IMG/VR virus record: IMGVR_UViG_2909246061_000001
Span: 1 to 41,135 of that record
Length of the DNA stretch: 41,135 bases
Reading direction: 5' to 3' (one strand)
Source of the DNA: a virus
Taxonomy: Duplodnaviria; Heunggongvirae; Uroviricota; Caudoviricetes
The first letter of the stretch is position 1; every line of letters begins with the position of its first letter. Below the pieces are notes generated by a model. The model saw nothing but the letters and a program-made list of their open reading frames with translations, ran no database searches and was not told where the DNA came from. Shown in pieces: positions 1 to 24,428 of this stretch. The translations under genes were made by a program, and so were the position numbers.

Positions 1-483
1 ATGTTAGTTAGTAAAAGCAACGGATTTAACGCTAGCGCAGTTTTGGGTAGTGGAAGTTATAATGAAAATAAATCTTCTAAACACATGGAGCTACTAGCTC
101 ATAGTATTTTAAAATTAATTTGTAAGGAAGCTGCATCAGAGACGTATCGCGGTGCTCTTGAAACTTTACAAAAAATGATGTCTGAATGTATATATCAAGA
201 AGGCAACGCCTTTGTCATTATGGGAGCTGGAGAACAATTAAAACGTATTAAATATGAAGTTGGTGAAAATAACTTAAAGGTATTCAACGTACACTTTAAT
301 AATAATCACGAGTTAGTTAGTTCTGGTGAGCCTGACGTAATATGTTTAAGCAAGCAGGTCTGGGAAAATCTTCTCATTAAACTAAAGCTGGAAAACAATG
401 AAAATGTGTTTTCTAAAACTAAAAAATTATCGAATAAAAATAATGCCGATCAGTTTTTTGAATGCGCTAAAAGAAATGAATAG
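1..483 (+). CDS. hypothetical AT-rich protein; start at window edge uncertain; in the same frame as 583..1374 and separated from it only by one TAG
   Basis: ORF track; low GC; frame 1 stays open from 484 to the ATG at 583, so this may be the 5' part of one disrupted gene. Confidence 0.3.
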   Translation: MLVSKSNGFNASAVLGSGSYNENKSSKHMELLAHSILKLICKEAASETYRGALETLQKMMSECIYQEGNAFVIMGAGEQLKRIKYEVGENNLKVFNVHFNNNHELVSSGEPDVICLSKQVWENLLIKLKLENNENVFSKTKKLSNKNNADQFFECAKRNE

Positions 484-582
484 AACCTTTTCGATAATAT
501 AAGAAAAAGTGATTTTCATGTTGGTTTACTTAAGCCAAGTAGTACGCGTAGTGTTATTTTAGAAACGCCGCCAAATGTCTGT

Positions 583-1374
583 ATGGAATCACGTAATTCA
601 TATGAAAACAAAATAGATGAGATTTCATCTTTGTCAGAGTCAAAGGAACACCCCATAGATATTCAAGAAAAAAAAGATGCGTTTGTGAATGAGTTCAAGG
701 GGGTATTATTTGATAAAAATACAAGGTCTTCAGAGCTTCTGTTTAATTTTTATGAGTGTTGCTATAAGTTTTTACCAAGAGCTCAGCCTCAAGATAAAAT
801 CGATAGCTATAATTCAGCACTGCAAGCTTTTTCCATTTTTTGTTCATCTACGTTGACACATAATAATATAGGCTTTGATTTCAAATTATTTCCTGAAGTC
901 AAGCTGTCTGGAGAACATCTTGAAACGGTATTCAAATACAAAAATGGCGATGATGTCCGGGAGATAGCCAAAATTAACATTACTCTCCAAAAAGAAGAGG
1001 GTGGTTTATATAATTTACGTGGATTGGATTTTAAGGGGTGCTTCTTTTCTGGACAGAACTTCAGTAACTATGATATTCAATATGTGAACTGGGGAACGTC
1101 ATTGTTTGATGTTGATACTCCGTGTATTTTTAATACGCCTGCTTACAACAAGAGTAATGAAAAATCATTAAAACCTGTGAGCGAAAACGGTTTAAGTGGA
1201 GTATTGACTGATCGTAATAATAAAATAAAACTCATCACGGGCGTGGCACCATTCGATGATATTTTATTTATGGATGATGACTTTGATGATAGTTCCTCTG
1301 AGGATGATCCCGTTGAGAATAGTCCTGTTGTGACTAGTCCCGTTGTATCAAGTTCTAAAAGCAGTTTTCAATGA
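583..1374 (+). CDS. hypothetical protein with pentapeptide-repeat-like segment (NLRGLDFKGCFFSGQNFSNYD) and acidic Ser/Pro-rich C-terminus; possibly effector-like
   Basis: ORF track; AT-rich composition; no recognisable RBS upstream, consistent with being a continuation of 1..483. Confidence 0.35.
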   Translation: MESRNSYENKIDEISSLSESKEHPIDIQEKKDAFVNEFKGVLFDKNTRSSELLFNFYECCYKFLPRAQPQDKIDSYNSALQAFSIFCSSTLTHNNIGFDFKLFPEVKLSGEHLETVFKYKNGDDVREIAKINITLQKEEGGLYNLRGLDFKGCFFSGQNFSNYDIQYVNWGTSLFDVDTPCIFNTPAYNKSNEKSLKPVSENGLSGVLTDRNNKIKLITGVAPFDDILFMDDDFDDSSSEDDPVENSPVVTSPVVSSSKSSFQ

Positions 1375-1468: not shown

Positions 1469-1543
1469 CCATTTTAGTGTCACTACCAAAGAAAAAGGGG
1501 CTACGTTTTCATGTAACCCCTTGATTTATTTGGTGGGCTGGCA
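1469..1543 (-). repeat. degenerate copy of the ssrA 3' flank: terminator hairpin plus about 13 nt resembling the tmRNA 3' end
   Basis: 1469..1543 aligns with 40013..40086 with a few mismatches (ccattttNNNNNcactaccaaagaaaaaggggctacgYtttcaYgtaaccccttgatttatttggtgg), then diverges. Confidence 0.6.
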
Positions 1544-1721
1544 GTGACTGAATTGGTGCTGTAATTGGTTGAAATATTTCATCTAATGTCTGGTTCAACT
1601 TTCCTTAGCTGCCTGAAAGTTTTTTGATCTTACCCAGCAATAACAGCGTTACGGTGCACCACGCCTGACTGAAGAACTGCGTGCTCAGGGTTACCACTTC
1701 AACGTAAAACCGTGGCAGGAG

Positions 1722-1900
1722 GTCCGGACTGAAAAAACTGGTCAGGACATCATCGGCAGGGAACGCACTGCTAGTCTGTAAACTGAACCGACTGGGGCGC
1801 AGTATGTGGCATCTTGTCGTGCTGTTGGAGGAGCTGTGCGAACGTGGTATTAACTTTCGTGCTCTGGCCCAATCTATATTTGCCCAACAATGGGGGGACG
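1722..1900 (+). pseudogene. internal fragment of a Pin/Hin-family DNA invertase gene, truncated at its 3' side by IS1
   Basis: translation [51 protein letters not shown] matches the intact invertase at 31610..32176 (LKKLLRTLSAGDTLVVWKLDRLGRSMRHLVTLIEELRQRGVNFRSLTDSI); N-terminal catalytic region absent; frame runs into the IS1 end at 1901. Confidence 0.55.
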
Positions 1901-1955
1901 GGTGATGCTGCCAACTTACTGATTTAGTGTATGATGGTGTTTTTGAGGTGCTCCA

Positions 1956-2231
1956 GTGGCTTCTGTTTATATCAGCTGTCCCTCCTGTTCAGCTACTGAC
2001 GGGGTGGTGCGTAACGGTAAAAGTACTGCCGGACATCAGCGCTATCTCTGCTCTCACTGCCGTAAAACATGGCAACTGCAGTTCACTTACACCGCTTCTC
2101 AACCCGGTACGCACCAGAAAATCATTGATATGGCCATGAATGGCGTTGGATGCCGGGCAACCGCCCGCATTATGGGCGTTGGCCTCAACACGATTTTCCG
2201 CCATTTAAAAAACTCAGGCCGCAGTCGGTAA
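1956..2231 (+). CDS. insA: IS1 transposition regulator InsA
   Basis: 91-aa zinc-finger protein [40 protein letters not shown] typical of IS1 InsA. Confidence 0.85.
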
Positions 2232-2653
2232 CCTCGCGCATACAGCCGGGCAGTGACGTCATCGTCTGCGCGGAAATGGACGAACAGTGGGGCTATGTCG
2301 GGGCTAAATCGCGCCAGCGCTGGCTGTTTTACGCGTATGACAGGCTCCGGAAGACGGTTGTTGCGCACGTATTCGGTGAACGCACTATGGCGACGCTGGG
2401 GCGTCTTATGAGCCTGCTGTCACCCTTTGACGTGGTGATATGGATGACGGATGGCTGGCCGCTGTATGAATCCCGCCTGAAGGGAAAGCTGCACGTAATC
2501 AGCAAGCGATATACGCAGCGAATTGAGCGGCATAACCTGAATCTGAGGCAGCACCTGGCACGGCTGGGACGGAAGTCGCTGTCGTTCTCAAAATCGGTGG
2601 AGCTGCATGACAAAGTCATCGGGCATTATCTGAACATAAAACACTATCAATAA
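2150..2653 (+). CDS. insB: IS1 InsB reading frame (expressed as InsAB' transposase by -1 frameshift at the tttaaaaaac motif near 2203..2212)
   Basis: ORF with canonical IS1 InsB sequence (…[29 protein letters not shown]…); A6C slippery run present. Confidence 0.8.
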
Positions 2654-3913
2654 GTTGGGACCATTACCCATTGGGGCATATTTATACTCGTCTATATGAC
2701 AGTTACTTTTTAAAATTTCACCCTTAAAATCCTCAATTATCTCTGAGTAAAATGATCTTAGTGCTTCATTTATTTTGAGATAGCTGTAATCATGTTCTGG
2801 CTTATAACCAATCAAAGTATATGCTCTTAAAAGACCACCAAATCGGGTTCTATAAACAGAAGATGAAGGGCCTGTATCATCTTCATCAATGATAAAGCCT
2901 GATAGTTTTCCATTAGATTCTAATTTTTGTTTTAGTTTTTCTAATAGATCTTCATTAGTCAAATGAATGGATCGGAGCTGAATTATTTCTTGAGCTTTAT
3001 TGTATTTTTTCTTTGAAATAATAGGTTTATATGCCTTGTCACATCTAACCCATTCATGTTTGGGGTTTTTTACAAGCCTACTTTTTAATTTAGATGAGGT
3101 TTTGTTATATATGTTGTTTCCAATATATTTTTCATTTGTCAAAATTTGATGTATTTTTGCACGAGTCCATAATGTTCCATTTTCTGCAGGTATGTTCTGT
3201 TCATTTAATCTCTCAGCAATAATGAATTCTGGGACGTTATTATCTATAAAGAGATCATATATTCTATTTACAATTTTTATTTCATTTTTTGGTCCCGGAA
3301 TTAATATTACCCTATCTGTTTGAATACTCTTTCTTTTGCGGAAACTCAATATTTCTTTAGCTATGCCATTTTCGTCTACTAAAAGACGTCTCAGCCCATA
3401 ACCAGCCATACCGCCTTGATGATAACCAAGCTTTATTAAATTTACTTGCCCTATAAATACCTTATCAGATAGATTCCTGCTGTGATATGCAGCACTAGAT
3501 CTTTTTATATTCAGTATAACAGAGGACTCTAAAGGGAAATCTTTAGTGGGTATAGGTTCGGAACAATATATAAGATCTACACCATTTCTCTCAAATAGAA
3601 AGGAATAATATGCCGCTTCATCACTATTTTGAAAACGACCAAAACGGCTCACATCATAAAATAATACAGCCTGTATATCTATTTTCTTTTGTTCTACATC
3701 GCTAAGTAACTGCTGCAAAGAATGCCTGCCTACGATACTGACTCCGCTCTTACCTGCATCATCGTAGGTATAAGCGATTTCCATATTGTTCTTTTCAGCA
3801 TAATCTTTGATATATTCGGACTGATTATGTAAAGAATATTGCTGATGGTCGGTAGACATCCTCAAGTACTGCGCGACCCTAACTCTATGATTTTTGTCAT
3901 TTTCGCTAGCCAT
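2588..3913 (-). CDS. large serine recombinase (resolvase-type catalytic domain plus recombinase domain); 3' end interrupted by IS1, so the last 27 codons are IS1-derived and the protein is probably non-functional
   Basis: N-terminal YLRMSTDHQ serine-recombinase motif; AT-rich; ORF crosses the IS1 right end at 2668. Confidence 0.6.
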
Positions 3914-4195
3914 GCACGAAACCTCATGGATGATTCAATACAATGTAGTGGATAAAATTGATCAAATTTCAACCGAATTCAACTGTTTTATCATTGATTA
4001 GAGCGAATTTGGTAGATCTTCGAGGTGTATGATAATCGAGAAGAGATGTGAATTATTTAGCTGATATGACCGACAGCTTTCGTTATGTGGACTCAATGTC
4101 CCCATTTGTAAATGGCTATGCTTAGTCCACATAGGTTAATGGTGTGATTATTAATTCTTTAACTAAATCAAGATAGTTAATCCATCATGGGAGAG

Positions 4196-5425
4196 TTATG
4201 CGGCAATAACTTTGCATTTTTGAGACGAAACATAGTCACTCCACCATTGCATGAGAACCACCCGTTCAGTGAGATACTCTGCACGATTGTAGGCTGCAAT
4301 TATTTCATCTTTCTTCGAGTGGGCAAGGGCGGCTTCTAAGACATCAGTCCTAAACTTGCCAGACTCCTCAGCAGCCGTTCTAGCAATGGATCGCATACCG
4401 TGAGCTACAAGCTCACCTCCGAAACCCATACGGATTATGGCCGCATTAGCTGTTTGTTCATGCATGTGATTGAGTGGAGCTTTGATACTGGGGAACACCC
4501 ACTCTCTATGCCCGCTGATGACTTTCATTAAATCCAAAACTCGCAAAGCTTCTTTGCTCAGTGGAACTTTGTGAGGCTTCTTCATTTTCATAAACTCCGC
4601 CGGGATGTTCCACATGCCAGTTTCAATATCAATATCTGACCATCTTGTGCGAACAGCTTCACCTGGGCGAACCCATGTGAGAAGTTGCCACTCAATCAGT
4701 AGCCTTGTTTCCAAACGGATAGAAGCATTGTTTAGAGCAACCAAGAAGCGAGGGAGTTCGGAAGGGGGTAATGCTGGCATATTCTGTTTTTTTGGCTTGC
4801 TGAACCGTTGCCCCAGGTTGTCTGCCGGGTTGAATTCTATGAGTTCTTCTGTTGCTGCATAGCGGAAAATTTCATTCAGGCGGGATATGATGCGGCGAAG
4901 TGTTTCAAGGACACCTCGTTTTTCTATGGGTTCTAAATGCTGTTTAAGCATTTTAGGGCGAATCTCCTTAATTGGGGTATCACCCAATGTGGAAAAGATA
5001 TTTCTCTCTAGGCTTCGCCAGATGTCGTTAGCATGATCTTGGGAGATGCCTGACGTTTTGACTTTCTCATCAAGCCACTTCTTGGCTACTGCTTGAAATG
5101 TATGTTCCGTGGCATCTTTCAGTGCATTGGCTTTTTGGTTGTTATGAACTTGGGGGTCTATACCATTTGTAAGCAACGACAAGTATTCATCACGTAAAGC
5201 TCGTGCCTTCGCAAGTGTAAGGTGAGGATAGGTTCCTAAGCTCACCTTAGTTCGCTTTTTGGTCACAGGCACTGCATATCTGAAATACCAATTTTTCTTC
5301 CCTCCCTTCGCCAGGGGAGCGATTCGCAACAGCAAACCATCGCCGTCAAAAAGGTTAACCTCTTTTTCGGCAGGTTTGGTGCTTTTGATTTCAGTGTCAG
5401 TGAGCTTCTTAGCGATTTTGGCCAT
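4196..5425 (-). CDS. tyrosine integrase, P4/CP4-57 IntA family
   Basis: N-terminus MAKIAKKLTDTEIKSTKP…DGDGLLLRI…WYFRY typical of P4-type integrases; C-terminal catalytic domain with …HGMRSIARTAAEESG… and YNRAEYLTER; probable ATG at 5425 (the track ORF extends to 5506); lies directly beside an ssrA 3'-end copy, as intA does beside ssrA in CP4-57. Confidence 0.85.
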   Translation of the reverse strand: MAKIAKKLTDTEIKSTKPAEKEVNLFDGDGLLLRIAPLAKGGKKNWYFRYAVPVTKKRTKVSLGTYPHLTLAKARALRDEYLSLLTNGIDPQVHNNQKANALKDATEHTFQAVAKKWLDEKVKTSGISQDHANDIWRSLERNIFSTLGDTPIKEIRPKMLKQHLEPIEKRGVLETLRRIISRLNEIFRYAATEELIEFNPADNLGQRFSKPKKQNMPALPPSELPRFLVALNNASIRLETRLLIEWQLLTWVRPGEAVRTRWSDIDIETGMWNIPAEFMKMKKPHKVPLSKEALRVLDLMKVISGHREWVFPSIKAPLNHMHEQTANAAIIRMGFGGELVAHGMRSIARTAAEESGKFRTDVLEAALAHSKKDEIIAAYNRAEYLTERVVLMQWWSDYVSSQKCKVIAA

Positions 5426-5522
5426 GTTTGGGACCCTCGATTTTAGGACCCATCTTCGTGGGTCCCATTCAGGGTGCCATAACTCGTAGTTCTCAGCAAT
5501 TCTCACTAGACTACAATAGACG

Positions 5523-5560
5523 TAAAAAAGCCCGCAGAGCTTGTGCTGTGCGGGCTTAGT
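5523..5560 (-). terminator. rho-independent terminator hairpin downstream (minus sense) of the ssrA 3'-end copy
   Basis: minus-strand gcccgcacagcacaagctctgcgggc followed by tttttt. Confidence 0.45.
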
Positions 5561-5587
5561 AGACTTTACTGAACTTCAGTACATCAA

Positions 5588-5636
5588 TATTTGGTGGAGC
5601 TGGCGGGAGTTGAACCCGCGTCCGAAATTCCTACAT
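5588..5636. repeat. 49-bp direct repeat identical to the ssrA 3' end; left att site of the P2-like prophage
   Basis: 5588..5636 is identical to 40072..40120 and the sequences diverge immediately outside both copies. Confidence 0.85.
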
Positions 5637-5768
5637 ACCATTTTTACTATAACAAAAACATGAACTTATGTTTAAAATCAGTGTGTTAGTATTATTTTGT
5701 GTTTGTCTGTTTTACGCATTTTTAATGCTCTGCCGCCAAAATGCCGCCACTGGTTTTGCTTGGGAGAC

Positions 5769-7289
5769 TTATTCAGGCTTTAATTTATTGATAATAGAAT
5801 CTACCATTTTAATGCCTGCCTCATTGACTATGACTGAATTGACTACTCTATCAAAATAGTCCTCTATATGGTGGGAAAATAGGAAAGCAGCACTTGATGG
5901 TTTTTTGTTCTTTTCAACTGCAGATTGCAAGACTTCATGAGGCGGAATTTTAAACCTTTTGCATGATGCAATGAGATATTCAAACTCTTCAAATGATAGA
6001 CAAAAAATATTCTCTGTAGGGATATGATAGTTATGTTTAAACTTGTCATATATCTTATTCATCTCATCTTTAGCATAAGTATTAGCTAGGATACTACCAT
6101 TGCCTAAGAAAAGGTTTTTATATGTAATGCAAATGATATATGAGTTAGCCCTGAATGGAGCTATTATTCGCTCATTAGAGTATATTTCTCGATTAACTTC
6201 GTGAGATTGTTCGATTGCTTTTAATACCGATTTCTTTATTTTTCCTGCAATATCCTCAGGGCGTAATGTTACCATGCCTTTTTGGTGTATCTCAACGCCT
6301 TTAGCATCAATGAAAATATTTGCCTCAGTATGTGGAATGAAATAATCAACTACTTTATTATCTTTAGGTAGTCGTTCTTTAAGGTATTTTTCGTTATGAA
6401 AATCAATTTCGCTTTCTTTTAGTATTAATTCCAGTGCATTTTCAAATACATTTCCAAAGCTATCCATGAACTTCTCGGCATCAGTTCTTCTTAAAAGATC
6501 ATATATGAACGTCTGTATGCTTGTTGAAGTCAGTTGTGTGTGTATCTGAAAATACTCTGAACCTTTTTTTATTAATGGTTTTTCAAGAAAAGGTGATGAT
6601 GAGTAGTATTCAAGCAAAGGTTTATCATAGGTTTTTGATTTGCAAAATGTAGATAGTTCATTGTAATTTATTGATATTGCATCAAGAAATTTCTCAATGG
6701 TATTTCTAGGAATGATGTCAAATAATATAGTAAATGTATCTACATTCATTTTTCTCACGGGATGCTCTTCTGTTATGTGAGTTATTAATATGTAAGATAG
6801 CTTAAGAAAGTCTTCGATAGATACATTCGTGATAGTAAAAAAACTTTTCTTTATTTTATGGTTTTTTTCAAGTTCTGAAAATAGAAAGACTTGTCTGCTA
6901 ATTGTGTTTAGAGCGTCAATTTTCTGGTAGATTCCTTGTTGGTATAGATTATTTCTAATGAAGAAATGCATGCCATTCTTCCTCTCAAGACCGATAGGAA
7001 TAATGTTCAAGGTTTCATAAGTTTTTTGGAAGAGTTTTATTGCTTGATTTTTATCGAGGATTTTGAATTTTTTATTCTTGCCAGTTACTGACGCAGACCA
7101 CTTTAGACATAAATTAACAATCCAAGGCATGTGTCGTAACATGTGGATATTATCTTCAAATTTTTGTAAGTTATATTGCATACAGAATTCGATAAATAAA
7201 TCAGGGGAATAACCTTGGATTTCTGAACGAATAGCATCCATTCTTAACTTTGCAACCGCATCAGATTGAATATCTAATTTTTGAATCAC
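5769..7289 (-). CDS. hypothetical 506-aa protein; AT-rich cargo gene between the prophage integrase and the left att
   Basis: long ORF with GTG start and GGAGA RBS 13 bp after the int stop; very low GC against the phage backbone; I recognise no fold; possible PD-(D/E)xK-like signature VVDYF…IFIDAKG. Confidence 0.6.
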   Translation of the reverse strand: MIQKLDIQSDAVAKLRMDAIRSEIQGYSPDLFIEFCMQYNLQKFEDNIHMLRHMPWIVNLCLKWSASVTGKNKKFKILDKNQAIKLFQKTYETLNIIPIGLERKNGMHFFIRNNLYQQGIYQKIDALNTISRQVFLFSELEKNHKIKKSFFTITNVSIEDFLKLSYILITHITEEHPVRKMNVDTFTILFDIIPRNTIEKFLDAISINYNELSTFCKSKTYDKPLLEYYSSSPFLEKPLIKKGSEYFQIHTQLTSTSIQTFIYDLLRRTDAEKFMDSFGNVFENALELILKESEIDFHNEKYLKERLPKDNKVVDYFIPHTEANIFIDAKGVEIHQKGMVTLRPEDIAGKIKKSVLKAIEQSHEVNREIYSNERIIAPFRANSYIICITYKNLFLGNGSILANTYAKDEMNKIYDKFKHNYHIPTENIFCLSFEEFEYLIASCKRFKIPPHEVLQSAVEKNKKPSSAAFLFSHHIEDYFDRVVNSVIVNEAGIKMVDSIINKLKPE

Positions 7290-7301
7290 AATAGGTCTCC
7301 A

Positions 7302-8315
7302 CTACAAATTATAAAGAGGATTTTTAGTCACCGCGTCTTCAAGGTGATCGGGCGAAAAGTGGGCGTAAATCATGGTCATTTTTATATCGGCATGACCCAA
7401 AATATCACGCAGTACCAGTATGTTTCCGCCGTTCATCATAAAGTGACTGGCGAATGTATGGCGAAGCACGTGGGTACATTGGCCCTCCGGTAGGTCAATA
7501 CCGGCCCGCTTTACTGCCCGCTCAAAGGCTTTTCTGCATGGCGTGAATAACTTTCCTCTGTTTTTGGGGAGTTCATCATACAGATCCTGAGATATCGGCA
7601 CAGTACGGTTTTTCTTGCCTTTTGTTTTTGTATAAGTAATTCGGTATTTCGATATTTGATGGCCCTGCAGATTTTCGGCTTCACTCCACCGTGCGCCAGT
7701 AGCCAGACATATTTTTGCAATCATTAGTAAGCTAGGGCTTTGAGATTCAGCACATGCCGCCAACAGGCGCTTGATTTCGTCCGTGGAAAGAAAAGCCAGC
7801 TCACCTTCGGCAATTTTGAAGGTCGGAAGTCCTGCCAGCGGGTTTGGTGCTGACCAGTGTCCTAGTTTTTTTAATGTACCGAACACAGATGATAGATTGC
7901 GCTGTTCAAGGTTTACCGTGCGGGGCTTAACGGGCGACATCAGCGTGCCATCTTCATTTCGCACTTCACCTTTTAGCCGTGCTTCGCGGTATTTCGTAAA
8001 GTCACCGGCAGTCAGCTCTGAAGCGATGGGATCGCCCAGACCATTACAGATAATTCCAAGTTTCGCCATGAGTCGCTTGGGGTCTGCGAGTGTTTGACCA
8101 TACAGGGAATACCACAGCTCAATTAATTCTGATAGGTGTCGCCGATCTTCCTTTTCTCCCAGCCAAGGTTTCTTGTTTACCTCGTCCATGGTGAAATTCT
8201 CAAACGCAATGGCTTCGCCTTTCGTCGCAAATTGTTTGCGTACGCGTTTGCCATCTCGCCCGTTTGGGTAGCATTCACATAACCACTTTCCGTTCGGCTG
8301 TTTTCTGATGGTCAT
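7302..8315 (-). CDS. int: P2/186-type tyrosine integrase
   Basis: 337 aa, same length as P2 Int; C-terminal motifs ARWSEA…HVLRHTFASHFMMNGGNILVLRDILGHADIKMTMIYAHF. Confidence 0.9.
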   Translation of the reverse strand: MTIRKQPNGKWLCECYPNGRDGKRVRKQFATKGEAIAFENFTMDEVNKKPWLGEKEDRRHLSELIELWYSLYGQTLADPKRLMAKLGIICNGLGDPIASELTAGDFTKYREARLKGEVRNEDGTLMSPVKPRTVNLEQRNLSSVFGTLKKLGHWSAPNPLAGLPTFKIAEGELAFLSTDEIKRLLAACAESQSPSLLMIAKICLATGARWSEAENLQGHQISKYRITYTKTKGKKNRTVPISQDLYDELPKNRGKLFTPCRKAFERAVKRAGIDLPEGQCTHVLRHTFASHFMMNGGNILVLRDILGHADIKMTMIYAHFSPDHLEDAVTKNPLYNL

Positions 8316-8316
8316 A

Positions 8317-8949
8317 TCAAAGGCTCTTAATGATTTTCAGTGCGCGGCCTATTACCTCAATGTCATCCAGTTCGCACTCAAACGATGAATCATCCTGATG
8401 CACTACTAATCTGTTTCCCGGGAGTCGTGTCAATTTTACAATGCTTTTTATCCCGTCGATGTCCACTAACCACGTACCATTTACTGGTGGTGTTTGGTTG
8501 CGATCTATTAAATAAGAATCACCAGAAGTAGTCACCAGCAGCAGGTTGCTTGAGTCTGAGGGGAGTATGCTGCTATCAATGATTGCTTTTCCAGCATCGA
8601 TCAGCAAACCTCCGTTGAGAGTTGCCTTGTCAATTTCAGGAGATACAAGCTCCGAAAGAGGTTTAACTTTGCTAGAGTTCACGGAATTGATATTTTTTTT
8701 AGGGTCAATGTTTGAACCTGGATCGCCCTGTCCGGTAGTTAGCCACAGTAAAGAAACTCCTGTTTCCAAAGCGCACTGAATCACCCATTCTGCAGGAAAA
8801 CTATCTCTTAAGTATCTGTTTGCCATAGTGCTTTTTGATGCGCCCAAGTGATCGCAAAGTTGCTGTCTGGACTTGAAATCATAGGCTGCCATTAGCCTAT
8901 GGATAGCCTCTCTTCCCCCTGTATTCTCGCCAGCTTTTACTTGTATCAT
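8317..8949 (-). CDS. cI: 186 CI-type immunity repressor
   Basis: N-terminal HTH plus C-terminal region with CALETGVSLLWLTTGQG and TWLVDIDGIKSIVKLTRLPGNRLVV resembling the 186 CI repressor; divergent from the early operon. Confidence 0.75.
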   Translation of the reverse strand: MIQVKAGENTGGREAIHRLMAAYDFKSRQQLCDHLGASKSTMANRYLRDSFPAEWVIQCALETGVSLLWLTTGQGDPGSNIDPKKNINSVNSSKVKPLSELVSPEIDKATLNGGLLIDAGKAIIDSSILPSDSSNLLLVTTSGDSYLIDRNQTPPVNGTWLVDIDGIKSIVKLTRLPGNRLVVHQDDSSFECELDDIEVIGRALKIIKSL

Positions 8950-8961
8950 TTTTTAATCCTG

Positions 8962-9013
8962 TTGACGTATCAAATATTGGATCGTAGTATCTTGGTGTAT
9001 CAAATATTGAATC
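8962..9013. promoter_or_regulatory. putative early promoter/operator region between cI and the rightward early operon
   Basis: two 17-bp direct repeats gtatcaaatattgRatc (8967..8983 and 8997..9013); TTGACG (8962..8967) 17 bp before TAGTAT (8985..8990) reads as a rightward promoter overlapping the first repeat. Confidence 0.35.
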
Positions 9014-9068
9014 AAATAAAACAAGATAAAACGACGTAAACCAAACCTTAATCGAGAGATACTGCACT

Positions 9069-9317
9069 ATGAGCAACGACATTTCAATTCGTGTACCAAA
9101 AGTGATGGCGACACCAGCTGAGTTCGCGGAATGGGAAGGCCGCTCTCGCGGTTCGGTATATCAAATGATTCATAATGGTAAACTCGCTAAATTCTTGGAA
9201 AGAAAAGAAAAATCGAAAGACAGAGTATGTATACGTTACCTTGAGTACAAAAAGGAACAAGTCAGGAAAAACATGGGCCAATCCAATTTCAACTTTAATG
9301 TCATCGTTGGTGACTAA
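9069..9317 (+). CDS. small HTH protein, Apl/Cox-like excisionase or regulator
   Basis: first gene of the rightward early operon opposite cI; basic 82-aa protein. Confidence 0.5.
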   Translation: MSNDISIRVPKVMATPAEFAEWEGRSRGSVYQMIHNGKLAKFLERKEKSKDRVCIRYLEYKKEQVRKNMGQSNFNFNVIVGD

Positions 9318-9349
9318 GTTCAATTATGAGAACTTTCTAAGGGGGCAGC

Positions 9350-9859
9350 ATGTTTGATTACAAGATTTCCAAACATCCGCATTTTGATGAAGCCTGTAGA
9401 GCTTTTGCACTACGTCACAATATGGCAAAGCTGGCAGAACGTGCAGGAATGAATGTTCAGACACTGCGAAACAAACTCAATCCAGATCAACCGCATCAGC
9501 TCACCGCACCAGAAATCTGGTTGCTTACCGATCTGACTGAAGATTCAACGTTGGTAGACGGTTTTCTGGCACAGATTCATTGTCTGCCATGTGTTCCGAT
9601 TAATGAGGTGGCAAAAGAGAAACTGCCGCATTACGTCATGAGTGCAACTGCAGAGATCGGGCGTGTTGCTGCAGGTGCGGTATCTGGCGATGTAAAAACC
9701 AGTGCAGGTCGTCGTGATGCTATCAGCAGCATTAACTCTGTAACACGACTGATGGCGCTGGCGGCTGTTTCATTGCAGGCCCGTTTACAGGCTAATCCTG
9801 CGATGGCAAGTGCAGTTGATACTGTAACTGGCCTCGGTGCGTCATTCGGTTTGCTGTGA
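9350..9859 (+). CDS. cII: phage regulatory protein CII (186 CII-like)
   Basis: MFDYKISKHPHFDEACRAFALRHNMAKLAERAGMNVQTLRNKLNPDQPHQ closely resembles 186 CII. Confidence 0.8.
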   Translation: MFDYKISKHPHFDEACRAFALRHNMAKLAERAGMNVQTLRNKLNPDQPHQLTAPEIWLLTDLTEDSTLVDGFLAQIHCLPCVPINEVAKEKLPHYVMSATAEIGRVAAGAVSGDVKTSAGRRDAISSINSVTRLMALAAVSLQARLQANPAMASAVDTVTGLGASFGLL

Positions 9860-9866
9860 GGTGCTT

Positions 9867-10067
9867 ATGCTGACGAAAGAACCATCATTTGCATCGCTGC
9901 TGGTAAAACAAAGCCCGGCAATGCACTACGGTCACGGCTGGATCATGGGGGAGGATGGTAAACGCTGGCATCCGTGCCGTTCACAAGATGAATTGCTGGC
10001 AGAACTATCTACGAAAAAACGGGGGAACAAATGGCTATTGAAGGCGCTGCGGCGACTGTTCCATTAA
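9867..10067 (+). CDS. hypothetical phage early protein (66 aa)
   Basis: ATG at 9867 with GAGGTG RBS; overlaps the next ORF by 37 nt, so one of the two may be mis-called. Confidence 0.4.
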   Translation: MLTKEPSFASLLVKQSPAMHYGHGWIMGEDGKRWHPCRSQDELLAELSTKKRGNKWLLKALRRLFH

Positions 10068-10372
10068 GCCCCGGTGAACGCCTGAATGGACTTAACCATA
10101 TTGCGGAGTTAAGGGCGAAAGTATTTGGCCTGAATATTGAGTCAGAGCTTGAGCGGTTTATTAAAGATATGCGTGATCCACGGGATATCAATAACGAACA
10201 AAATAAACGGGCACTGGCTGCTATATTCTTTATGGCAAAAATTCCAGCTGAACGTCATAGCATCAGCATTAATGAGCTGACCACTGACGAAAAGCGGGAG
10301 CTGATTAAAGCAATGAATCATTTTCGTGCAGTGGTGAGCTTATTTCCCAGACGGCTAACCATGCCGAATTAA
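10031..10372 (+). CDS. hypothetical phage early protein (113 aa)
   Basis: ORF with GGGGA RBS; position corresponds to the fil/dhr region of 186-like phages. Confidence 0.4.
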   Translation: MAIEGAAATVPLSPGERLNGLNHIAELRAKVFGLNIESELERFIKDMRDPRDINNEQNKRALAAIFFMAKIPAERHSISINELTTDEKRELIKAMNHFRAVVSLFPRRLTMPN

Positions 10373-10439
10373 CCAACTAATGAAATTAATGGCGTAAACC
10401 CGCCGGGTATCCCTTTATCTAAATTCAGGAGAATTGATT

Positions 10440-10673
10440 ATGCGTAATATTGAAACCCTCACGACTAAAACCGGACCGGATGATGCAGGGCTTAATATTT
10501 TACTGACAGAGGCTCGTCTGGAAGAACGCCGGGCAAGGGCTGAAGCAATGGCAGCTCGCCTTGATAGCCTGGCGTGTCATATCACATCCCGCCAGCTAAA
10601 CCACGTCGAAGCAGCAGAACTACTGCGTGTAACTGCTGAAGCAATCCAGAACGAAGCGCAGGAGATCCACTAA
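10440..10673 (+). CDS. hypothetical phage early protein (77 aa)
   Basis: ATG at 10440 preceded by AGGAGA; stop overlaps the next start. Confidence 0.45.
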   Translation: MRNIETLTTKTGPDDAGLNILLTEARLEERRARAEAMAARLDSLACHITSRQLNHVEAAELLRVTAEAIQNEAQEIH

Positions 10674-10900
10674 TGGCTGATGCAATGGATCTTGTACAGC
10701 AGCGCGTTGAAGAAGAACGCCAGCGCCATATTCGTGCTGCCCGTGCCAAAACGCCGGGCGTGTCCCGCGTGCTTTGCATTGAGTGTGAAGCGCCAATTCC
10801 GCCAGCACGCCGCCGCGCCATTCCAGGTGTGCAGCTTTGCATTACCTGTCAGGAAATCGCAGAGCTGAAAGGCAAACATTACAACGGAGGTGCTGTATGA
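10673..10900 (+). CDS. TraR/DksA-family C4 zinc-finger protein
   Basis: CIECEAPIPPARRRAIPGVQLCITCQ four-cysteine motif; translationally coupled to dam (ATGA overlap). Confidence 0.7.
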   Translation: MADAMDLVQQRVEEERQRHIRAARAKTPGVSRVLCIECEAPIPPARRRAIPGVQLCITCQEIAELKGKHYNGGAV

Positions 10901-11754
10901 GCACCATCCTGAAATGGGCGGGAAATAAAACCGCCATTATGTCCGAACTGAAAAAACACCTTCCTGCTGGCCCGCGACTGGTTGAACCTTTCGCGGGTTC
11001 CTGTGCTGTGATGATGGAGACGGATTACCCCAGCTATCTGGTTGCGGATATTAATCCTGATTTAATCAACCTCTATAAAAAGGTTGCCGCTGATTGTGAA
11101 TCGTTTATATCTCGCGCCAGAGTTTTATTTGAGATCGCAAACAGGGAGGTGGCTTATTACAACATAAGGCAGGAGTTTAATTACTCCACTGAAATTACTG
11201 ATTTCATGAAAGCGGTATATTTCCTGTATCTCAATCGTCACGGTTACCGTGGTTTATGTCGCTATAACAAGAGCGGGCATTTCAACATTCCCTACGGTAA
11301 TTATAAAAATCCGTATTTCCCTGAAAAAGAAATTCGCGCATTTGCAGAAAAAGCCCAGCGGGCAACGTTTATCTGCGCCAGCTTTGATGAAACGCTGGCG
11401 ATGTTGAAGGCGGGGGATGTGGTGTATTGCGATCCGCCGTATGACGGCACGTTTTCCGGTTATCACACTGACGGCTTCACTGAAGATGACCAGTATCACC
11501 TGGCATCCGTTCTTGAACATCGGTCATCAGAAGGACATCCGGTCATTGTTTCTAACAGTGACACATCCCTGATCCGTTCGCTGTATCGCAATTTTACTCA
11601 CCACTACATCAAGGCAAAACGCAACATCGGTGTGGCAGCTGGAGAGGGTAAATCAGCAACAGAAATCATTGCTGTTTCCGGGCCGCGCTGCTGGGTGGGA
11701 TTTGATTATTCGCGTGGCGTGGACAGTTCTGCCGTGTACGGAGTACGTGCATGA
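10897..11754 (+). CDS. dam: DNA adenine methyltransferase (Dam-like, orphan)
   Basis: N-terminal ILKWAGNK…EPFAGSCAV AdoMet-binding motif and DPPY catalytic motif; no partner endonuclease nearby. Confidence 0.85.
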
Positions 11755-14165
11755 GTCATGCCGATATGAACAACTGCTGCGGCTTTAACGAGGCTGCCGC
11801 AGCATTCTCATGGAACAGCCCGAAAAAGGCCATTAACCCTTATCTGGACCCGGCGGAAGTTGCGCCGGTTTCTGCGCTTTCAAACCTGATCACTCTGTAC
11901 GCTGCCGATAACGAGCAGGAACAACTGCGCCGCGAGGCACTGAGTGATCAGGTCTGGGAGCGTTATTTCTTTAATGAATCCCGTGATCCTGTCCAGCGCG
12001 AAATGGAGCAGGATAAGCTAATTAGCCGGGCAAAGCTGGCGCATGAGCAGCAGCGTTTTAATCCAGACATGGTCATTCTGGCGGATGTCAACGCCCAGCC
12101 TTCCCATATCAGCAAGCCGCTGATGCAACGTATTAAATACTTCAGCAACCTGGGCAGGCCAAAGGCTTATTCCCGCTATTTGCGTGAGACGATTAAGCCA
12201 TGCCTGGAACGACTGGAGCATGTACGCGACAGCCAGCTATCTGCATCTTTTCGTTTTATGGCAAGCCATGAAGGGCTGGACGGTCTGCTGATCCTGCCTG
12301 AAATGAGTCAGGATCAGGTGAAACGCCTGTCCACCCTTGTCGCTGCGCATATGAGCATGTGTCTTGATGCCGCTTGTGGTGATTTGTACGCCTCCGATGA
12401 TGTTAAGCCGGAAGAAATCCGCAAGACATGGGAAAAGGTGGCAGCAGAAACCCTGCGACTGGATGTCATACCGCCTGCGTTTGAGCAACTCCGCCGGAAA
12501 AGAAACCGCCGCAAACCTGTGCCCTATGAACTCATTCCGGGTTCGCTGGCGCGTATGCTGTGCGCCGACTGGTGGTATCGAAAATTATGGAAGATGCGTT
12601 GCGAATGGCGGGAAGAGCAGTTGCGTGCTGTCTGTCTGGTCAGCAAAAAAGCATCTCCCTATGTCAGCTATGAAGCCGTGATGCATAAACGTGAGCAGCG
12701 CCGTAAGTCGCTGGAGTTTTTCCGTTCTCATGAACTGGTGAACGAAGACGGCGACACGCTGGACATGGAGGATGTGGTAAACGCCAGCAGCAGCAACCCT
12801 GCGCATCGCCGCAATGAGATGATGGCCTGTGTTAAAGGCCTGGAGCTTATCGCGGAAATGCGCGGTGACTGCGCCGTTTTCTACACCATCACCTGTCCGT
12901 CACGTTTCCATTCCACGCTAAATAACGGCAGGCCCAACCCGACCTGGACAAATGCGACGGTAAGACAAAGCAGTGATTATCTGGTTGGCATGTTTGCTGC
13001 ATTTCGTAAGGCGATGCACAAAGCCGGATTGCGCTGGTATGGCGTGCGGGTGGCTGAGCCGCATCATGACGGTACAGTTCACTGGCACCTGTTGTGTTTT
13101 ATGCGCAAAAAAGATCGCCGCGCCATTACTGCTTTGTTGCGTAAGTTTGCCATTCGTGAAGACCGCGAGGAGCTGGGGAATAACACGGGACCACGCTTTA
13201 AGTCTGAGTTGATTAACCCGCGCAAAGGAACGCCGACAAGCTACATCGCGAAATATATCAGTAAGAACATTGACGGGCGTGGTCTGGCTGGCGAGATCAG
13301 CAAGGAAACGGGTAAATCCCTGCGTGATAACGCTGAATACGTGAATGCCTGGGCGTCTCTGCATCGTGTTCAGCAATTCCGCTTCTTTGGCATTCCGGGG
13401 CGTCAGGCTTACCGTGAACTGCGATTGCTGGCTGGTCAGGCGGCAAGGCAACAGGGTGACAAAAAAGCAGGTGCGCCGGTACTGGATAACCCGCGCCTTG
13501 ATGCAATCCTGGCTGCTGCTGATGCTGGTTGTTTTGCCACCTACATCATGAAGCAGGGCGGCGTACTGGTTCCCCGTAAATATCACCTCATCAGAACTGC
13601 TTATGAAATCAACGAAGAGCCGACCGCCTATGGCGATCACGGCATTCGTATTTATGGCATCTGGTCACCTATTGCAGAGGGCAAGATCTGCACTCATGCC
13701 GTGAAGTGGAAAATGGTTCGTAAGGCCGTTGACGTTCAGGAGGCGGCAGCCGACCAGGGCGCTTGCGCCCCTTGGACTCGTGGCAATAACTGTCCCCTTG
13801 CTGAAAATTTGAACCAACAAGGGAAAGACAAATCAGCTGATGGGGATACCAGAACGGACATTACCCGCATGGATGACAAGGAGTTGCACGAATACCTGCA
13901 CAGTATGAGCAAAAAAGAGCGCCGGGAACTGGCTGCAAGGTTACGCCTGGTGAAACCGAAACGGCGTAAAGACTACAAACAGCGAATTACAGACCATCAG
14001 CGACAGCAGCTCGTCTATGAACTGAAGTCCAGAGGATTTGATGGCAGCGAGAAAGAGGTCGATTTACTCCTTCGCGGCGGCAGTATTCCGTCAGGAGCAG
14101 GCCTGCGTATCTTCTATCGGAACCAGCGTTTGCAGGAAGATGATAAGTGGCGGAACCTGTATTAA
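11751..14165 (+). CDS. A: P2 gpA-type replication initiation endonuclease
   Basis: 804 aa; HUH-type motif VHWHLLCF and catalytic Tyr region [12 protein letters not shown]. Confidence 0.9.
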
Positions 14166-14259
14166 TTACGCGGGTTAACAATTCGTGCTCTTAATAATAC
14201 CAGGCATTTCAGGCTGATGAACGTAAAAAAACGTTTTACATCAGTAAGATTATTATATA

Positions 14260-14275
14260 CTGTAAATATAAACAG
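14260..14275. promoter_or_regulatory. LexA (SOS) box upstream of the small operon at 14318
   Basis: ctgtaaatataaacag is a perfect CTGT-N8-ACAG match, about 40 bp before the AGGAGG RBS and ATG at 14318. Confidence 0.55.
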
Positions 14276-14317
14276 TGGTTATATATACAGTATTACTTTG
14301 GTGTCATAGGAGGAAAG

Positions 14318-14506
14318 ATGCAGGACTATTTTTTGGAGTCTTTGAAGCTCCAGCGCATTGATTTTTTTCTTAAGCTTGTAGCGGCTAGTGAGTGTAGTGA
14401 TGAAGAGAAGGGGCTGGCTCTGCAGTGGGTTTCTGAATTGACTGATGAACTCATGGCAAAAATCAGAACCCACGAATACAACCGCTCAATGGATGTCATC
14501 AGCTGA
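14318..14506 (+). CDS. small SOS-regulated protein, possible Tum-like antirepressor
   Basis: 62-aa ORF directly downstream of the LexA box; functional assignment is by position only. Confidence 0.4.
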   Translation: MQDYFLESLKLQRIDFFLKLVAASECSDEEKGLALQWVSELTDELMAKIRTHEYNRSMDVIS

Positions 14507-14516
14507 GGTGACCTTT

Positions 14517-14750
14517 ATGCGCATTGAAATAATGATCGATAAAGAGCAGAAGATTAGCCAGTCTACCCTGGACGCCCTTGAATCCGAGCTTTACCGCAAT
14601 CTGCGCCCCCTGTATCCCAAAATGGTAATTCGCATCCGCAAAGGTAGCTCTAACGGTGTGGAACTGACCGGACTGCAACTGGACGAAGAAAGAAAACAAG
14701 TGATGAAGATTATGCAGAAGGTGTGGGAAGACGACAGCTGGCTGCATTAA
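14517..14750 (+). CDS. DinI-family protein
   Basis: MRIEIMIDKEQKISQSTLDALESEL…KVWEDDSWL resembles E. coli DinI (MRIEVTIAK…); track ORF 14445..14750 trimmed to the internal ATG at 14517. Confidence 0.7.
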   Translation: MRIEIMIDKEQKISQSTLDALESELYRNLRPLYPKMVIRIRKGSSNGVELTGLQLDEERKQVMKIMQKVWEDDSWLH

Positions 14751-14909
14751 GAAAAGTTGCTGGCGTCTGAACTTGGTTCTGGCGTCAGCAAGGTTGAACA
14801 ACGAGTACAGTGAGGCGTTAGGTGTGGCGTTTATTTGATGAGTGAACGCCCGTTCTGCGACAGGTTCGGAGATTAAGGTTGAAACTACGGGCAAAATACC
14901 ATCTTTTTC

Positions 14910-15335
14910 CTACTTAATTGAGTCCAGTAACAAGTTACAGTTACTCTCATTGTAGAGAGAACGAGCAATTAGTGTTACCTGCTTTCCATTCATTCCCGGC
15001 TTATCCCATAACACAGCTTCTTGCGACGCCACAAATTCAGCATAATCAATTATGCGTTGTTCGTGATCTGGTTCCTCATAGCCAAAGTATGAGAGCGCAT
15101 CGTTGTAAGCGTGGTAAGCTGCTTTCTGTAATATCTTGATATCGGCTGTAGGTACTTGCTCCGTGTAGCTAGGATCTAATTGTGTGCTACTGCCATAGAA
15201 TGCACATGAAAGGTAAGATATTGATTTCTGTTGAGCTTTAGTTCCTTTCTCATAGTTTTTAGCTGTTACCGCCTGAACTGGGACGCTAACAAAGCTTGCA
15301 ACCAGAATTAAAATTAATACGTAAAAGCTTTTCAT
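14910..15335 (-). CDS. small secreted protein of unknown function (141 aa, signal peptide)
   Basis: N-terminus MKSFYVLILILVASFVSVPVQA with probable cleavage after VQA; AT-rich; opposite strand to neighbours; on the A side of cos. Confidence 0.55.
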   Translation of the reverse strand: MKSFYVLILILVASFVSVPVQAVTAKNYEKGTKAQQKSISYLSCAFYGSSTQLDPSYTEQVPTADIKILQKAAYHAYNDALSYFGYEEPDHEQRIIDYAEFVASQEAVLWDKPGMNGKQVTLIARSLYNESNCNLLLDSIK

Positions 15336-15678
15336 TTTGACCTCAGCCGAAACGTTAGAGAGACTATCGAAATTTGTAAAACCCGTGGCGATTCAGTTTG
15401 AGATCCTCCCCCTTACATGATTTTTAATCAAATATATGCTTTTGTAAGCATACCTGTTAACCGAATTATTTATTTTTAGAGATCTTCCGACATACTGATT
15501 ATGCCCGCTGAGGAGTTCACCTTGCGTAAGGTCCGATTCGCTTTACTCGTCTGTGCATGTCTATGCTGCATGAGATTGCATGATCGTTTGAGGATCGTTT
15601 TTGCTAAGGCCCGCCAGAACTGGCGGGCTTTTGCGTAGATCATGCACCTGCATGAAAACCACTACATAAAGCGGGCAG

Positions 15679-15697
15679 GCGTGGCGGGGATACGAGC
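15679..15697. other. putative cos site (cohesive-end region) of the P2-like phage
   Basis: ggcgtggcggggatacgag matches the first 12 nt of the 186 cos (GGCGTGGCGGGG…) and resembles P2 cos GGCGAGGCGGGGAAAGCAC. Confidence 0.4.
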
Positions 15698-15763
15698 GCG
15701 CGCTTATTACTTTGATAGTACTCGGGTTATAATATGGATGACTATCTATCTCGGAGAATGTAC

Positions 15764-17416: not shown

Positions 17417-17420
17417 TTTG

Positions 17421-17450
17421 GGAGGGGGATTTTCATCCCCCACACATTTT
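17421..17450 (+). terminator. rho-independent terminator between the NTPase gene and the portal gene end
   Basis: hairpin gggggat-tttc-atccccc followed by a T-rich stretch. Confidence 0.45.
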
Positions 17451-17452
17451 AT

Positions 17453-20247: not shown

Positions 20248-20389
20248 GGCACAAACCTACAGTCTTGAATGAAGGCTTTCCCCGCCTGCGGTTTGTGTGG
20301 TTGTCGGTACAAATACCGTGCATTGTTTCACTGCCCTCATCACCGCAACCATAAGGCTCCAGTAAGTTTTTTCTAACGGAGCACGGCTC

Positions 20390-21223: not shown

Positions 21224-21239
21224 TGGAGCACAAAACCTG

Positions 21240-22298: not shown

Positions 22299-22301
22299 TT
22301 C

Positions 22302-22952: not shown

Positions 22953-23047
22953 CAGAACGTGCCCCCGCGCACGGGCGGCACGGGGTGGCGAAAGGCACTG
23001 CCACATCAAAATCCCGTCCACCGCCCTTTATTTCAGGAGAAAGCAGC

Positions 23048-23512: not shown

Positions 23513-23715
23513 TGAAAGTGCGTGCGCATCAGTATGACACGGTGGACGCGCTTTGCTGGCGTCATTACGGGCGCACGCAGGGTGTCACGGAGCAGGTGCT
23601 GAAGGCAAATCCGGGGCTTGCCGAATACGGCCCCTTTTTACCTCACGGGCTGCAGGTGGAGCTGCCGGACATTCCGACCACCACCACCGTGCAGACCGTC
23701 CAGCTATGGGACTGA
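23512..23715 (+). CDS. X: tail protein X (P2 gpX)
   Basis: 67 aa; DALCWRHYGRTQGVTEQVLKANPGLAE resembles P2 X. Confidence 0.8.
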   Translation: MKVRAHQYDTVDALCWRHYGRTQGVTEQVLKANPGLAEYGPFLPHGLQVELPDIPTTTTVQTVQLWD

Positions 23716-23718
23716 ATT

Positions 23719-23934: not shown

Positions 23935-23953
23935 ACGCTGCCTTGTCGGGGCC

Positions 23954-24427: not shown

Positions 24428-24428
24428 A

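Follow-up and report, generated by a model that had tools for sequence, protein, structure and literature searches.

The window, the whole 41,135-nt stretch of DNA, is E. coli chromosome and runs from the ileY side through ypjCB, a relic of the ssrA 3' region, an IS1-truncated island and a 34-kb P2-family prophage to ssrA and smpB (Table 1). The ypjCB genes are of low GC content and are the neighbours of the relic toward ileY, with ypjB at a distance of 95 nt from the relic block at 1469-1543, across the spacer 1375-1468. We rejected ypjB as phage cargo, as tblastn of phage records returned no ypjB homologue, and PHROG matches to ypjB and ypjC, which probably reflect overshoot of prophage prediction, were given no weight as evidence. 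On the other side of the relic, there is a possible solo IS3 end, and an IS3 end is also seen in L102; the pinH fragment matches 31739-31872 of the prophage invertase with 78% identity in DNA (68% amino-acid identity over 53 aa).

Table 1. Coordinates, strands and supporting evidence for features of the window.
Feature	Position	Strand	Evidence or remark
ypjC / ypjB (YpjCB)	1..1374	+	Pfam DUF5507 and DUF5508, both ORFs; RefSeq annotation of relatives
Probable phage P' arm remnant	1469..1485	-	Alignment with phage arm and E. coli variants L116/L117
Fels-2-type trailer and terminator	1486..1530	-	Hairpin 1495-1522; U-run 1490-1494
tmRNA 3'-end relic, one base deleted (CGCCAGC-CCACCA type); CP4-57-family attR core	1531..1542	-	Matches K-12 psaA
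Right end (P arm) of CP4-57-family island	1543..1612	.	Homology to CAVP773 island end and psaA flank
IS3 terminal inverted repeat, possibly a solo end	1625..1642	+	Exact 18-nt match; 0 expected by chance
pinH pseudogene fragment (DNA invertase remnant)	1711..1878	+	RefSeq annotation in relatives
IS1	1901..2668	+	Deletions on both sides relative to AP025220
Serine recombinase gene, cut short by IS1	2669..3913	-	Pfam Resolvase and Recombinase
P4/CP4-57-type tyrosine integrase, younger island	4196..5425	-	Pfam Arm-DNA-bind_3, Phage_int_M, Phage_integrase
Island-borne ssrA trailer hairpin and terminator	5522..5587	-	Hairpin 5528-5557
attR of present P2-family prophage	5588..5636	-	Exact repeat of 40072-40120
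Felsduovirus-like P2-family prophage	5637..40075	.	Direct repeats, Pfam, arm repeats, phage relatives
P-arm arm-repeat dimer	5731-5749		Prophage
Cargo ORF	5769-7289		Prophage
int	7302-8315		Prophage; P2/186-type integrase
Invertase	31610-32176		Prophage
BRCT-like gene	39470-39952		Prophage
P'-arm dimer	40009-40027		Prophage
Terminator	40040-40067		Prophage
Intact ssrA (tmRNA)	40076..40438	-	ARAGORN, sole tmRNA gene in window; tag ANDENYALAA

ssrA is a well-known integration hotspot, and layered integration there is a known phenomenon. The first-pass annotation had reported three ssrA 3'-related sequences in the window, and all three were recovered. Besides the intact gene called by ARAGORN, the repeat finder returned an exact 49-nt direct repeat (5588-5636 and 40072-40120), made up of the 45 nt of the ssrA 3' end that form the attL core and 4 nt of flank (TATT), and a 68-nt repeat with 91% identity between 1469-1536 and 40014-40081. 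Hairpins that fold as terminators were found at 40040-40067 (-19.8 kcal/mol, z = -4.6), at 1495-1522 (-15.6 kcal/mol, z = -3.1) and at 5528-5557 (inside a -27 kcal/mol fold, z = -4.7). The degenerate copy had been credited with its terminator and about 13 nt of the tmRNA end; both elements are present, but the tmRNA-like end, TGGTGG-GCTGGC at 1531-1542, is 12 nt long and equals the last 13 nt of ssrA minus one base, a deletion and not a substitution. Since phage records, and E. coli genomes in their thousands, contain the same repeat blocks, these are not chance matches. The three ssrA-related sequences are junction scars of repeated mobile-element integration at E. coli ssrA.

The prophage itself has ssrA 3' direct repeats, a P2/186-type integrase and repeats on both arms. 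The window has exactly two copies of the dimer TGYCGCCA-N3-TGYCGCCA, one on each prophage arm (0 expected by chance); the dimer fits the published 186-type arm-binding repeat consensus, tgccGCCActt (PMC3448106). Integrase binding to TGCCGCCA in the Fels-2-like group is taken from that comparative analysis (PMC3448106), and the sites in the window are predicted ones. In the free phage Cartapus, P' arm, terminator, core and P arm form a contiguous attP; the earlier proposal that the P2-like attP carries the ssrA end together with a terminator stands, with a length of about 107 nt in place of the estimated ~125. This organisation is that of Fels-2, SopEPhi and RE-2010 (Felsduovirus), in whose attP sites the ssrA 3' core is combined with this same trailer and terminator and with 186-type direct repeats on both arms, int being at the end far from ssrA; the present prophage differs from this group in that its closest matches are prophage records of Klebsiella, at 97% identity across 86% of a stretch of 24.7 kb. 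That a P2-like phage integrated later and displaced older elements leftwards agrees with our analysis; 5588-5636 is the attR of this prophage, and the integrase island beyond it is older.

Also in agreement with the first reading, the copy at 5588-5636 is adjoined by a P4/CP4-57-type integrase, here 48% identical to K-12 IntA, and the island supplies its own terminator (claimed at 5523-5560, here 5528-5557); 5522-5587 is homologous to the K-12 CP4-57 trailer and terminator as well as to blocks in many Enterobacterales. An identical integrase lies beside ssrA in strains without the prophage. Relative to AP025220, the window is missing 548 bp (a hypothetical gene and ypjA') and 2333 bp (two ParB genes and the 3' end of the recombinase, which is a 1557-nt CDS in relatives). 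By comparison with K-12, AP025220, CP081324, CP150994 and CAVP773, at least two layers were distinguished between 1544 and 5587: a pinH'/ypjA remnant whose attR is 1469-1543, and an integrase/recombinase/ParB island reduced by IS1. The K-12 CP4-57/psaA system is similar in its P4-type integrase beside ssrA, its own trailer and terminator and its homologous island right end. The window island differs from it in the divergent integrase, the serine recombinase, the ParB genes (in relatives) and the deletion of its own attR, and the relic at 1531-1612 comes from an older member of the CP4-57 family without a remaining integrase.

The outermost block is unannotated; about 56% of the complete E. coli genomes carry it, and it is identical in K-12, where it lies between pinH and ypjB. 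Its 12-nt tmRNA relic has the same orientation as ssrA and lies downstream of the intact gene, and the one-base deletion is common to the window, the K-12 relic block and psaA. In its CGCCAGC-CCACCA form, this deletion is the signature of the CP4-57 attR (PMC10107115, Table 1) and inactivates tmRNA upon excision (PMC10107115). To the right of the relic, 1543-1612 is recognisably homologous to the psaA flank in K-12, and an intact CP4-57-type island of E. coli CAVP773 has a right end that is identical to it at 62 of 69 positions. To its left, 1486-1530 has only two differences from 40031-40075, 1475-1485 is a decayed proximal 186-type arm-binding repeat (TAGTGTCACTA), and 1469-1474 correspond to the CCA and TTT spacer of a cut-off distal arm repeat, with the homology to the phage arm breaking at 1468/1469. 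We consider it likely that 1469-1543 is a composite junction scar, in which the attR end of a CP4-57-family element is fused to a truncated Fels-2-like P' arm, and not native flank. Judged from these alignments, the left part is most likely the first ~63 nt of the P' arm (trailer, terminator, one 186-type repeat and 3 nt of the second), all that the relic keeps of an arm found complete in the Fels-2 group.

The junction in CAVP773 (NZ_CM176349.1, 2813590-2813775) likewise joins a P2-family P' arm, TGGTGG-GCTGGC and the right end of a CP4-57-type island. Its order is CP4-57-type island, TGGTGG-GCTGGCGG, P' arm, BRCT gene, ogr, D and so on to int of a half-deleted P2-like prophage. It differs from the window in that the P' arm is intact, with both repeats, and has kept its connection to ogr, D, cI and int of that prophage; the same decay is seen here at an earlier stage.

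Within 34 Fels-2-like phage records the relic block recurs, forming the P' arm of attP and always spanning 1469-1542. In the window and K-12 the proximal arm repeat is heavily decayed, matching the consensus at 6 of 11 positions, and the distal repeat is reduced to CCA, while the terminator carries only two changes, so the case for a phage arm rests on the less-decayed alleles. Two divergent E. coli relic variants, CP150994 and CP028772, read TGCTGCCACTA, have a phage-identical terminator and match the consensus of the proximal repeat at 9 of 11 positions. CP028772 is identical to the phage arm at 62 of 63 positions from CCATTTT to the ssrA end, and leftward of there identity falls to 5 of 28, which places the break inside the distal arm repeat; the left breakpoint is the same in all relic alleles. 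Uniform neutral decay of the phage arm was rejected for the window allele, which has mismatches at 8 of 19 positions in the arm versus 2 of 56 in the terminator. The less-decayed alleles show that the apparent divergence of the arm results from lineage-specific decay together with the breakpoint. A scan of viral contigs for the decayed arm sequence of the window returned the same E. coli chromosomal context and nothing else.

The first-pass annotation had instead read 1469-1537 as the terminator and flank native to ssrA, which a first CP4-57-like integration pushed aside; the Fels-2-like copy would then be host-captured. Several observations are consistent with this: the block is the outermost ssrA-related sequence, with only chance 9-11-mers of ssrA or ileY to its left; neither phage genes (ogr, D) nor other phage similarity was found left of 1469; and the hairpin could also terminate the converging ypjCB genes (plus-strand fold). 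Host-derived gene ends are, moreover, common in phage attP sites, and the phage terminator may descend from an ancient host flank. However, the block lies inside phage records, an occurrence which that annotation had itself set against its reading, and it includes the whole of one 186-type arm-binding repeat and breaks off within a second, so that a native flank would need a phage-protein binding site to have arisen by chance and at the right spacing. We therefore consider a native terminator at this position unlikely. Comparison with empty sites, proposed as the way to define the native flank, gave no instance of a contiguous ypjB-block-ssrA arrangement among 5426 E. coli genomes (synthetic ypjB-terminator-ssrA-smpB query) and no unoccupied ssrA with the relic flank among the loci of 55 other species. 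Nearly every locus examined carries some element, so that truly empty sites were scarce in the sample. These outgroup loci were sampled via SmpB, and ssrA in Enterobacterales is nearly always occupied; a large cluster of genes intervenes between smpB and ssrA in Salmonella and several others, so that SmpB-anchored loci stop short of ssrA, and the Salmonella flank was reached by a DNA pattern scan of viral contigs. Wherever a relic-type terminator follows ssrA among the 55 species' loci, it does so only together with phage-type arm repeats.

Alternatively, short-tract gene conversion could have imposed the phage-like sequence on a flank, native or otherwise, that already had a homologous terminator; the donors would be Fels-2-like prophages that repeatedly took up residence at a distance of 30-40 kb, in direct orientation. 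Both copies do stand in the window as 68-nt direct repeats, and E. coli relic alleles vary in phage-likeness, but the phage-like allele of CP150994 occurs without a P2-like prophage at ssrA, one left breakpoint is common to all alleles, and an extra process with no direct evidence is required, which makes this explanation quite improbable. Least credible is the single decayed CP4-57-like island of the first reading, spanning 1544-5587 and uniting the 4196-5425 integrase and the 1469-1543 attR in one element. Within the window there is indeed one P4-type integrase on the ssrA-proximal side and, at the opposite extreme, a single attR-like scar. K-12 and CAVP773, however, both carry a complete CP4-57-type island of another kind, which has an attR of its own, with the same relic and pinH'/ypjA lying behind it; CP150994 has ssrA, ypjA, pinH' and the relic without any integrase island; and in the lineage of the window IS1 removed the junction region, so that the two or more layers distinguished above replace this claim.

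Under the composite-scar reading, a Fels-2-like phage is the most likely candidate for the oldest layer still detectable, and not the CP4-57-like element that had been placed first. Such a phage would have entered ssrA and restored the 3' end of the gene, followed by the terminator that it brought along. A CP4-57-family element would then have entered the phage-regenerated ssrA, which would explain why its attR abuts the P' arm, an arrangement of which CAVP773 offers a living example. Subsequently, the old phage would have been lost by a deletion ending inside the distal arm repeat, and the CP4-57-family element would have decayed to ypjA/pinH', a layer in which no P4-type integrase was found in any strain examined. 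The integrase/serine-recombinase/ParB island would have integrated next, with IS1 later trimming it and removing its attR in the window lineage, before integration of the present 34-kb P2-family phage produced the exact 49-bp repeat. The anatomy of the junctions, the homologies and the CAVP773 example of the second step are direct observations; we infer the order of events from them, and likewise the deletion of the old phage, as phage genes are absent left of 1469 and ypjB is without a phage homologue.

The locus shows no essential difference from the ssrA hotspot in general, where several integrase families are at work, the gene end is regenerated by each newcomer and older elements are bounded by partial ssrA copies; what the window adds is an outermost scar in which a P4-type attR is probably fused to a P' arm of the P2 family, itself truncated. 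This scar reveals no new mechanism and is ordinary biology. It does allow the unannotated pinH-ypjB block to be labelled a composite att scar and, on the favoured reading, places a P2-family phage at ssrA before the CP4-57-type layers. It also cautions that at tRNA and tmRNA hotspots the outermost terminator-like copy is not automatically the native flank.

Related arms were found beyond E. coli. In Salmonella, the flank at the attR of RE2010-type prophages consists of the terminator and an arm-repeat dimer of the P2 (GTCCAC) type, and the Salmonella relic flank is 96% identical to Cronobacter phage ESSI-2. In Sodalis and Xenorhabdus such arms adjoin ssrA without phage late genes. We tentatively raise the possibility, which we hold to be less than even, that one module of ssrA core and terminator is paired with two classes of arm repeat, 186-type (TGCCGCCA) and P2-type (GTCCAC). 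If true, the attP of ssrA-integrating P2-family phages would evolve by swaps of arm modules around a fixed core, and relics in the chromosome, 1469-1543 among them, would preserve a fossil record of arm exchange. Relics might also persist through co-option of the phage terminator, for example for ypjCB. As observed here, 186-type arms occur in the window, Fels-2 and RE-2010, and P2-type arms in Cronobacter ESSI-2, the Salmonella relic, Photorhabdus and Xenorhabdus.

The three ssrA-related blocks that the first-pass annotation had described are present in this E. coli chromosomal stretch (assigned by megablast), namely the intact gene, an exact 49-nt copy of its end and a degenerate 68-nt block. 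Joining the two ends of the P2-family prophage gave an attP that is contiguous in Escherichia phage Cartapus (95% over 534 nt); the 49-bp repeat thus represents attL/attR of the present prophage, and the proposal of a P2-like attP carrying the ssrA end plus terminator was borne out.

Coordinates of features at the ssrA locus
Feature	Position	Description
68-nt block	1469-1536	91% identity to 40014-40081
Relic tmRNA end	1531-1542	TGGTGG-GCTGGC; last 13 nt minus one base; ssrA similarity stops beyond
CP4-57-type island end	1543-1612	62/69 identical to right end of intact island in CAVP773
IS3 end	1625-1642	exact 18-nt match to terminal inverted repeat
pinH fragment	1711-1878	chromosomal pseudogene
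IS1	1901-2668	deletions on both sides relative to AP025220
Integrase island	2669-5587	
49-nt copy	5588-5636	exact copy of 40072-40120; 45 nt tmRNA end + TATT
Prophage	5637-40075	P2 family
Int-side end	5637-7289	506-aa cargo ORF
Arm-repeat dimers	5731-5749, 40009-40027	one per prophage arm
Integrase	7302-8315	Int_N + Phage_integrase domains
DNA invertase	31610-32176	prophage gene
BRCT-like gene	39470-39952	160 aa; adjoins attL
Hairpin	40040-40067	strong; after the trailer, left of intact ssrA; -19.8 kcal/mol, z = -4.6
ssrA	40076-40438	sole tmRNA gene; minus strand; enterobacterial tag ANDENYALAA
smpB	40653-41135	beyond ssrA

The 68-nt block belongs to a degenerate ssrA-flank copy at 1469-1543 (the relic), which E. 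coli K-12 has base for base, unannotated, between pinH and ypjB. In K-12, psaA, annotated as the CP4-57 attR, shares this shortened tmRNA end, and its island-side flank is homologous to 1543-1612. Published work gives this one-base deletion as the signature of the CP4-57 attR, a copy that inactivates tmRNA upon prophage excision (PMC10107115, Table 1). The right half of the relic is the attR of a CP4-57-family element. Small 3'-end deletions are common in displaced ssrA copies at attR and would inactivate tmRNA after excision; examples are 1 nt in the window and psaA and 5 nt (CGCCAGC-----CA) in E. coli CAVP773 (L102 13850-13905) and a Salmonella genome (L093 10120-10160), comparable to those in PMC10107115, Table 1.

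For the left half, the first-pass annotation had proposed the native ssrA terminator (1469-1537). We found instead that the block lies inside 34 phage records (among them Fels-2, SopEPhi, RE-2010, SEN8, Cartapus and Klebsiella, Yersinia and Cronobacter phages), a result that the annotation itself had named as refuting, and always aligns over 1469-1542 as the arm adjoining the attP core. In P2-like phages, 186-type integrases are reported to bind the arms at direct repeats with the consensus tgccGCCActt (PMC3448106). The dimer TGYCGCCA-N3-TGYCGCCA, which fits this consensus, occurs exactly twice in the window, in the two prophage arms (0 expected by chance), and the corresponding positions in the relic allele of the window and K-12 look decayed (TAGTGTCACTA). 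The relic was found in 3041 of 5426 complete E. coli genomes, with alleles as low as 88% identity; in the divergent alleles of CP028772 and CP150994 the arm reads TGCTGCCACTA and the terminator is phage-identical. CP028772 and the phage arm agree at 62 of 63 positions from CCATTTT through the tmRNA end, and at only 5 of 28 directly to the left, placing the breakpoint inside the distal arm repeat, between TGTCG and CCA. A phage arm cut by deletion would explain this breakpoint simply. A native host flank is unlikely, since it would have to contain one complete predicted integrase-binding repeat and, correctly spaced from it, three bases of a second. The left half of the relic is most likely a truncated phage arm rather than native flank, the truncation being attributed to deletion.

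Contiguous ypjB-terminator-ssrA was found in 0 of 5426 E. coli genomes. Among 55 further Enterobacterales species whose ssrA was in reach, three kinds of sequence follow the gene. Usually it is a CP4-57-type trailer hairpin and GCCCGC terminator, whether an integrase is present or not; others have a GGAC-rich arm from a different type of element; and 5 of the 55 have the Fels-2-type terminator together with phage arm repeats. In Cronobacter/Mixta, Dickeya, Erwinia, Yersinia and Salmonella, Fels-2-like prophages have an attR that adjoins CP4-57-type blocks. The native flank is therefore hardly observable, and for this reason some probability stays on a native terminator at 1469-1537. In Cedecea colo, a ~3-kb ssrA insert lies between two CP4-57-type trailer/terminator blocks with a short core (L058 10925, 14066-14078), which shows that this block, too, can occupy the outer side of attR.

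The truncated-arm reading has a close parallel in CAVP773, where the same three-part junction still has its phage attached. There, a CP4-57-type island with its integrase adjoining ssrA is followed by TGGTGG-GCTGGCGG, the terminator and both arm repeats, and then by a half-deleted P2-like prophage (BRCT gene, ogr, D, cII', cI and int). RE-2010-type prophages of Salmonella have an 84-bp flanking repeat, and six viral contigs show their outer flank to be the same terminator and then GTCCAC-type arm repeats, with at least four different incoming phages beside it. This flank shares 96% identity with the ESSI-2 arm (Cronobacter phage). Such arms adjoin ssrA without late genes in Sodalis and Xenorhabdus. 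Relic P' arms (attL-side arms of phage attP) thus recur as a product of ssrA traffic. One ssrA core-plus-terminator module occurs with two arm-repeat classes, 186-type TGCCGCCA and P2-type GTCCAC (L109-L114, L019, L023, L025, L048; ESSI-2), a pattern suggesting that attP arms may be exchanged as modules.

Strains AP025220 and CP081324, which lack the large insert, gave the gene order of the locus: glaH, ygaQ', ileY, ypjCB, the relic, pinH fragment, small ORF, ypjA fragment, IS1, two ParB genes, serine recombinase, P4-type integrase, ssrA and smpB. Relative to AP025220, the window is missing 548 bp left of IS1 (small ORF and ypjA fragment) and 2333 bp right of it (the ParB gene pair and the recombinase gene's 3' end). 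In K-12 and CAVP773, the relic and pinH'/ypjA lie behind other, complete CP4-57-type islands having their own attR, and the CP150994 array consists of ssrA, ypjA, pinH', relic and ypjCB, with nothing more. Therefore 1544-5587 contains what is left of two or more elements, and not the single decayed island first proposed; the layer bounded by the relic attR is not the integrase island, whose own attR was lost together with the IS1 deletions. The 18-nt IS3 match (TGATCTTACCCAGCAATA) has the CP4-57-type island end on its left and the pinH fragment on its right; with a full IS3 close by in CAVP773, it may be a solo end from IS-mediated deletion.

With junction anatomy and homologies observed directly, we infer the following order as most likely. 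A Fels-2-like phage would have entered ssrA, and then a CP4-57-family element the regenerated gene, so that its attR abutted the phage arm. The old phage would then have been lost by deletion up to the distal arm repeat and the element have decayed to ypjA/pinH'. Integration of the integrase/recombinase/ParB island, later trimmed by IS1, and finally of the present prophage would complete the array. The interpretation first proposed is partly supported: its layering, blocks and attP are kept, and a phage arm is preferred to its native terminator.

CP4-57 with psaA and Fels-2/SopEPhi are textbook cases of integration at ssrA, and enterobacterial tandem arrays there, in which several integrase families are represented and partial ssrA copies separate the elements, were reportedly described by Williams in 2003 (as cited by PMC10107115). 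The window is another instance of these arrays, its relic shared with K-12. The sole novelty may be that this unannotated relic is read as a P4-type attR fused to a truncated 186-type P' arm, which, if true, would make a P2-family phage the earliest detectable ssrA tenant.

The late genes of the present prophage share 84-95% protein identity with Salmonella phage RE-2010. A 24.7-kb stretch (7300-32000 area) is closest to prophage records from Klebsiella pneumoniae, with 97% identity across 86% of its length, and the int-side end is 99.7% identical, which suggests recent sharing between Escherichia and Klebsiella. The cargo ORF in this end belongs to phrog_14259, of unknown function, and has no Pfam family. 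At the ogr end, the BRCT-like gene is probably cargo as well; it matches a phage family of DNA ligase/BRCT domain (phrog_2561), and RefSeq names its homologue BRCT domain protein. The prophage invertase gene is 78% identical in DNA to the pinH fragment, and pinH itself may be a phage remnant.
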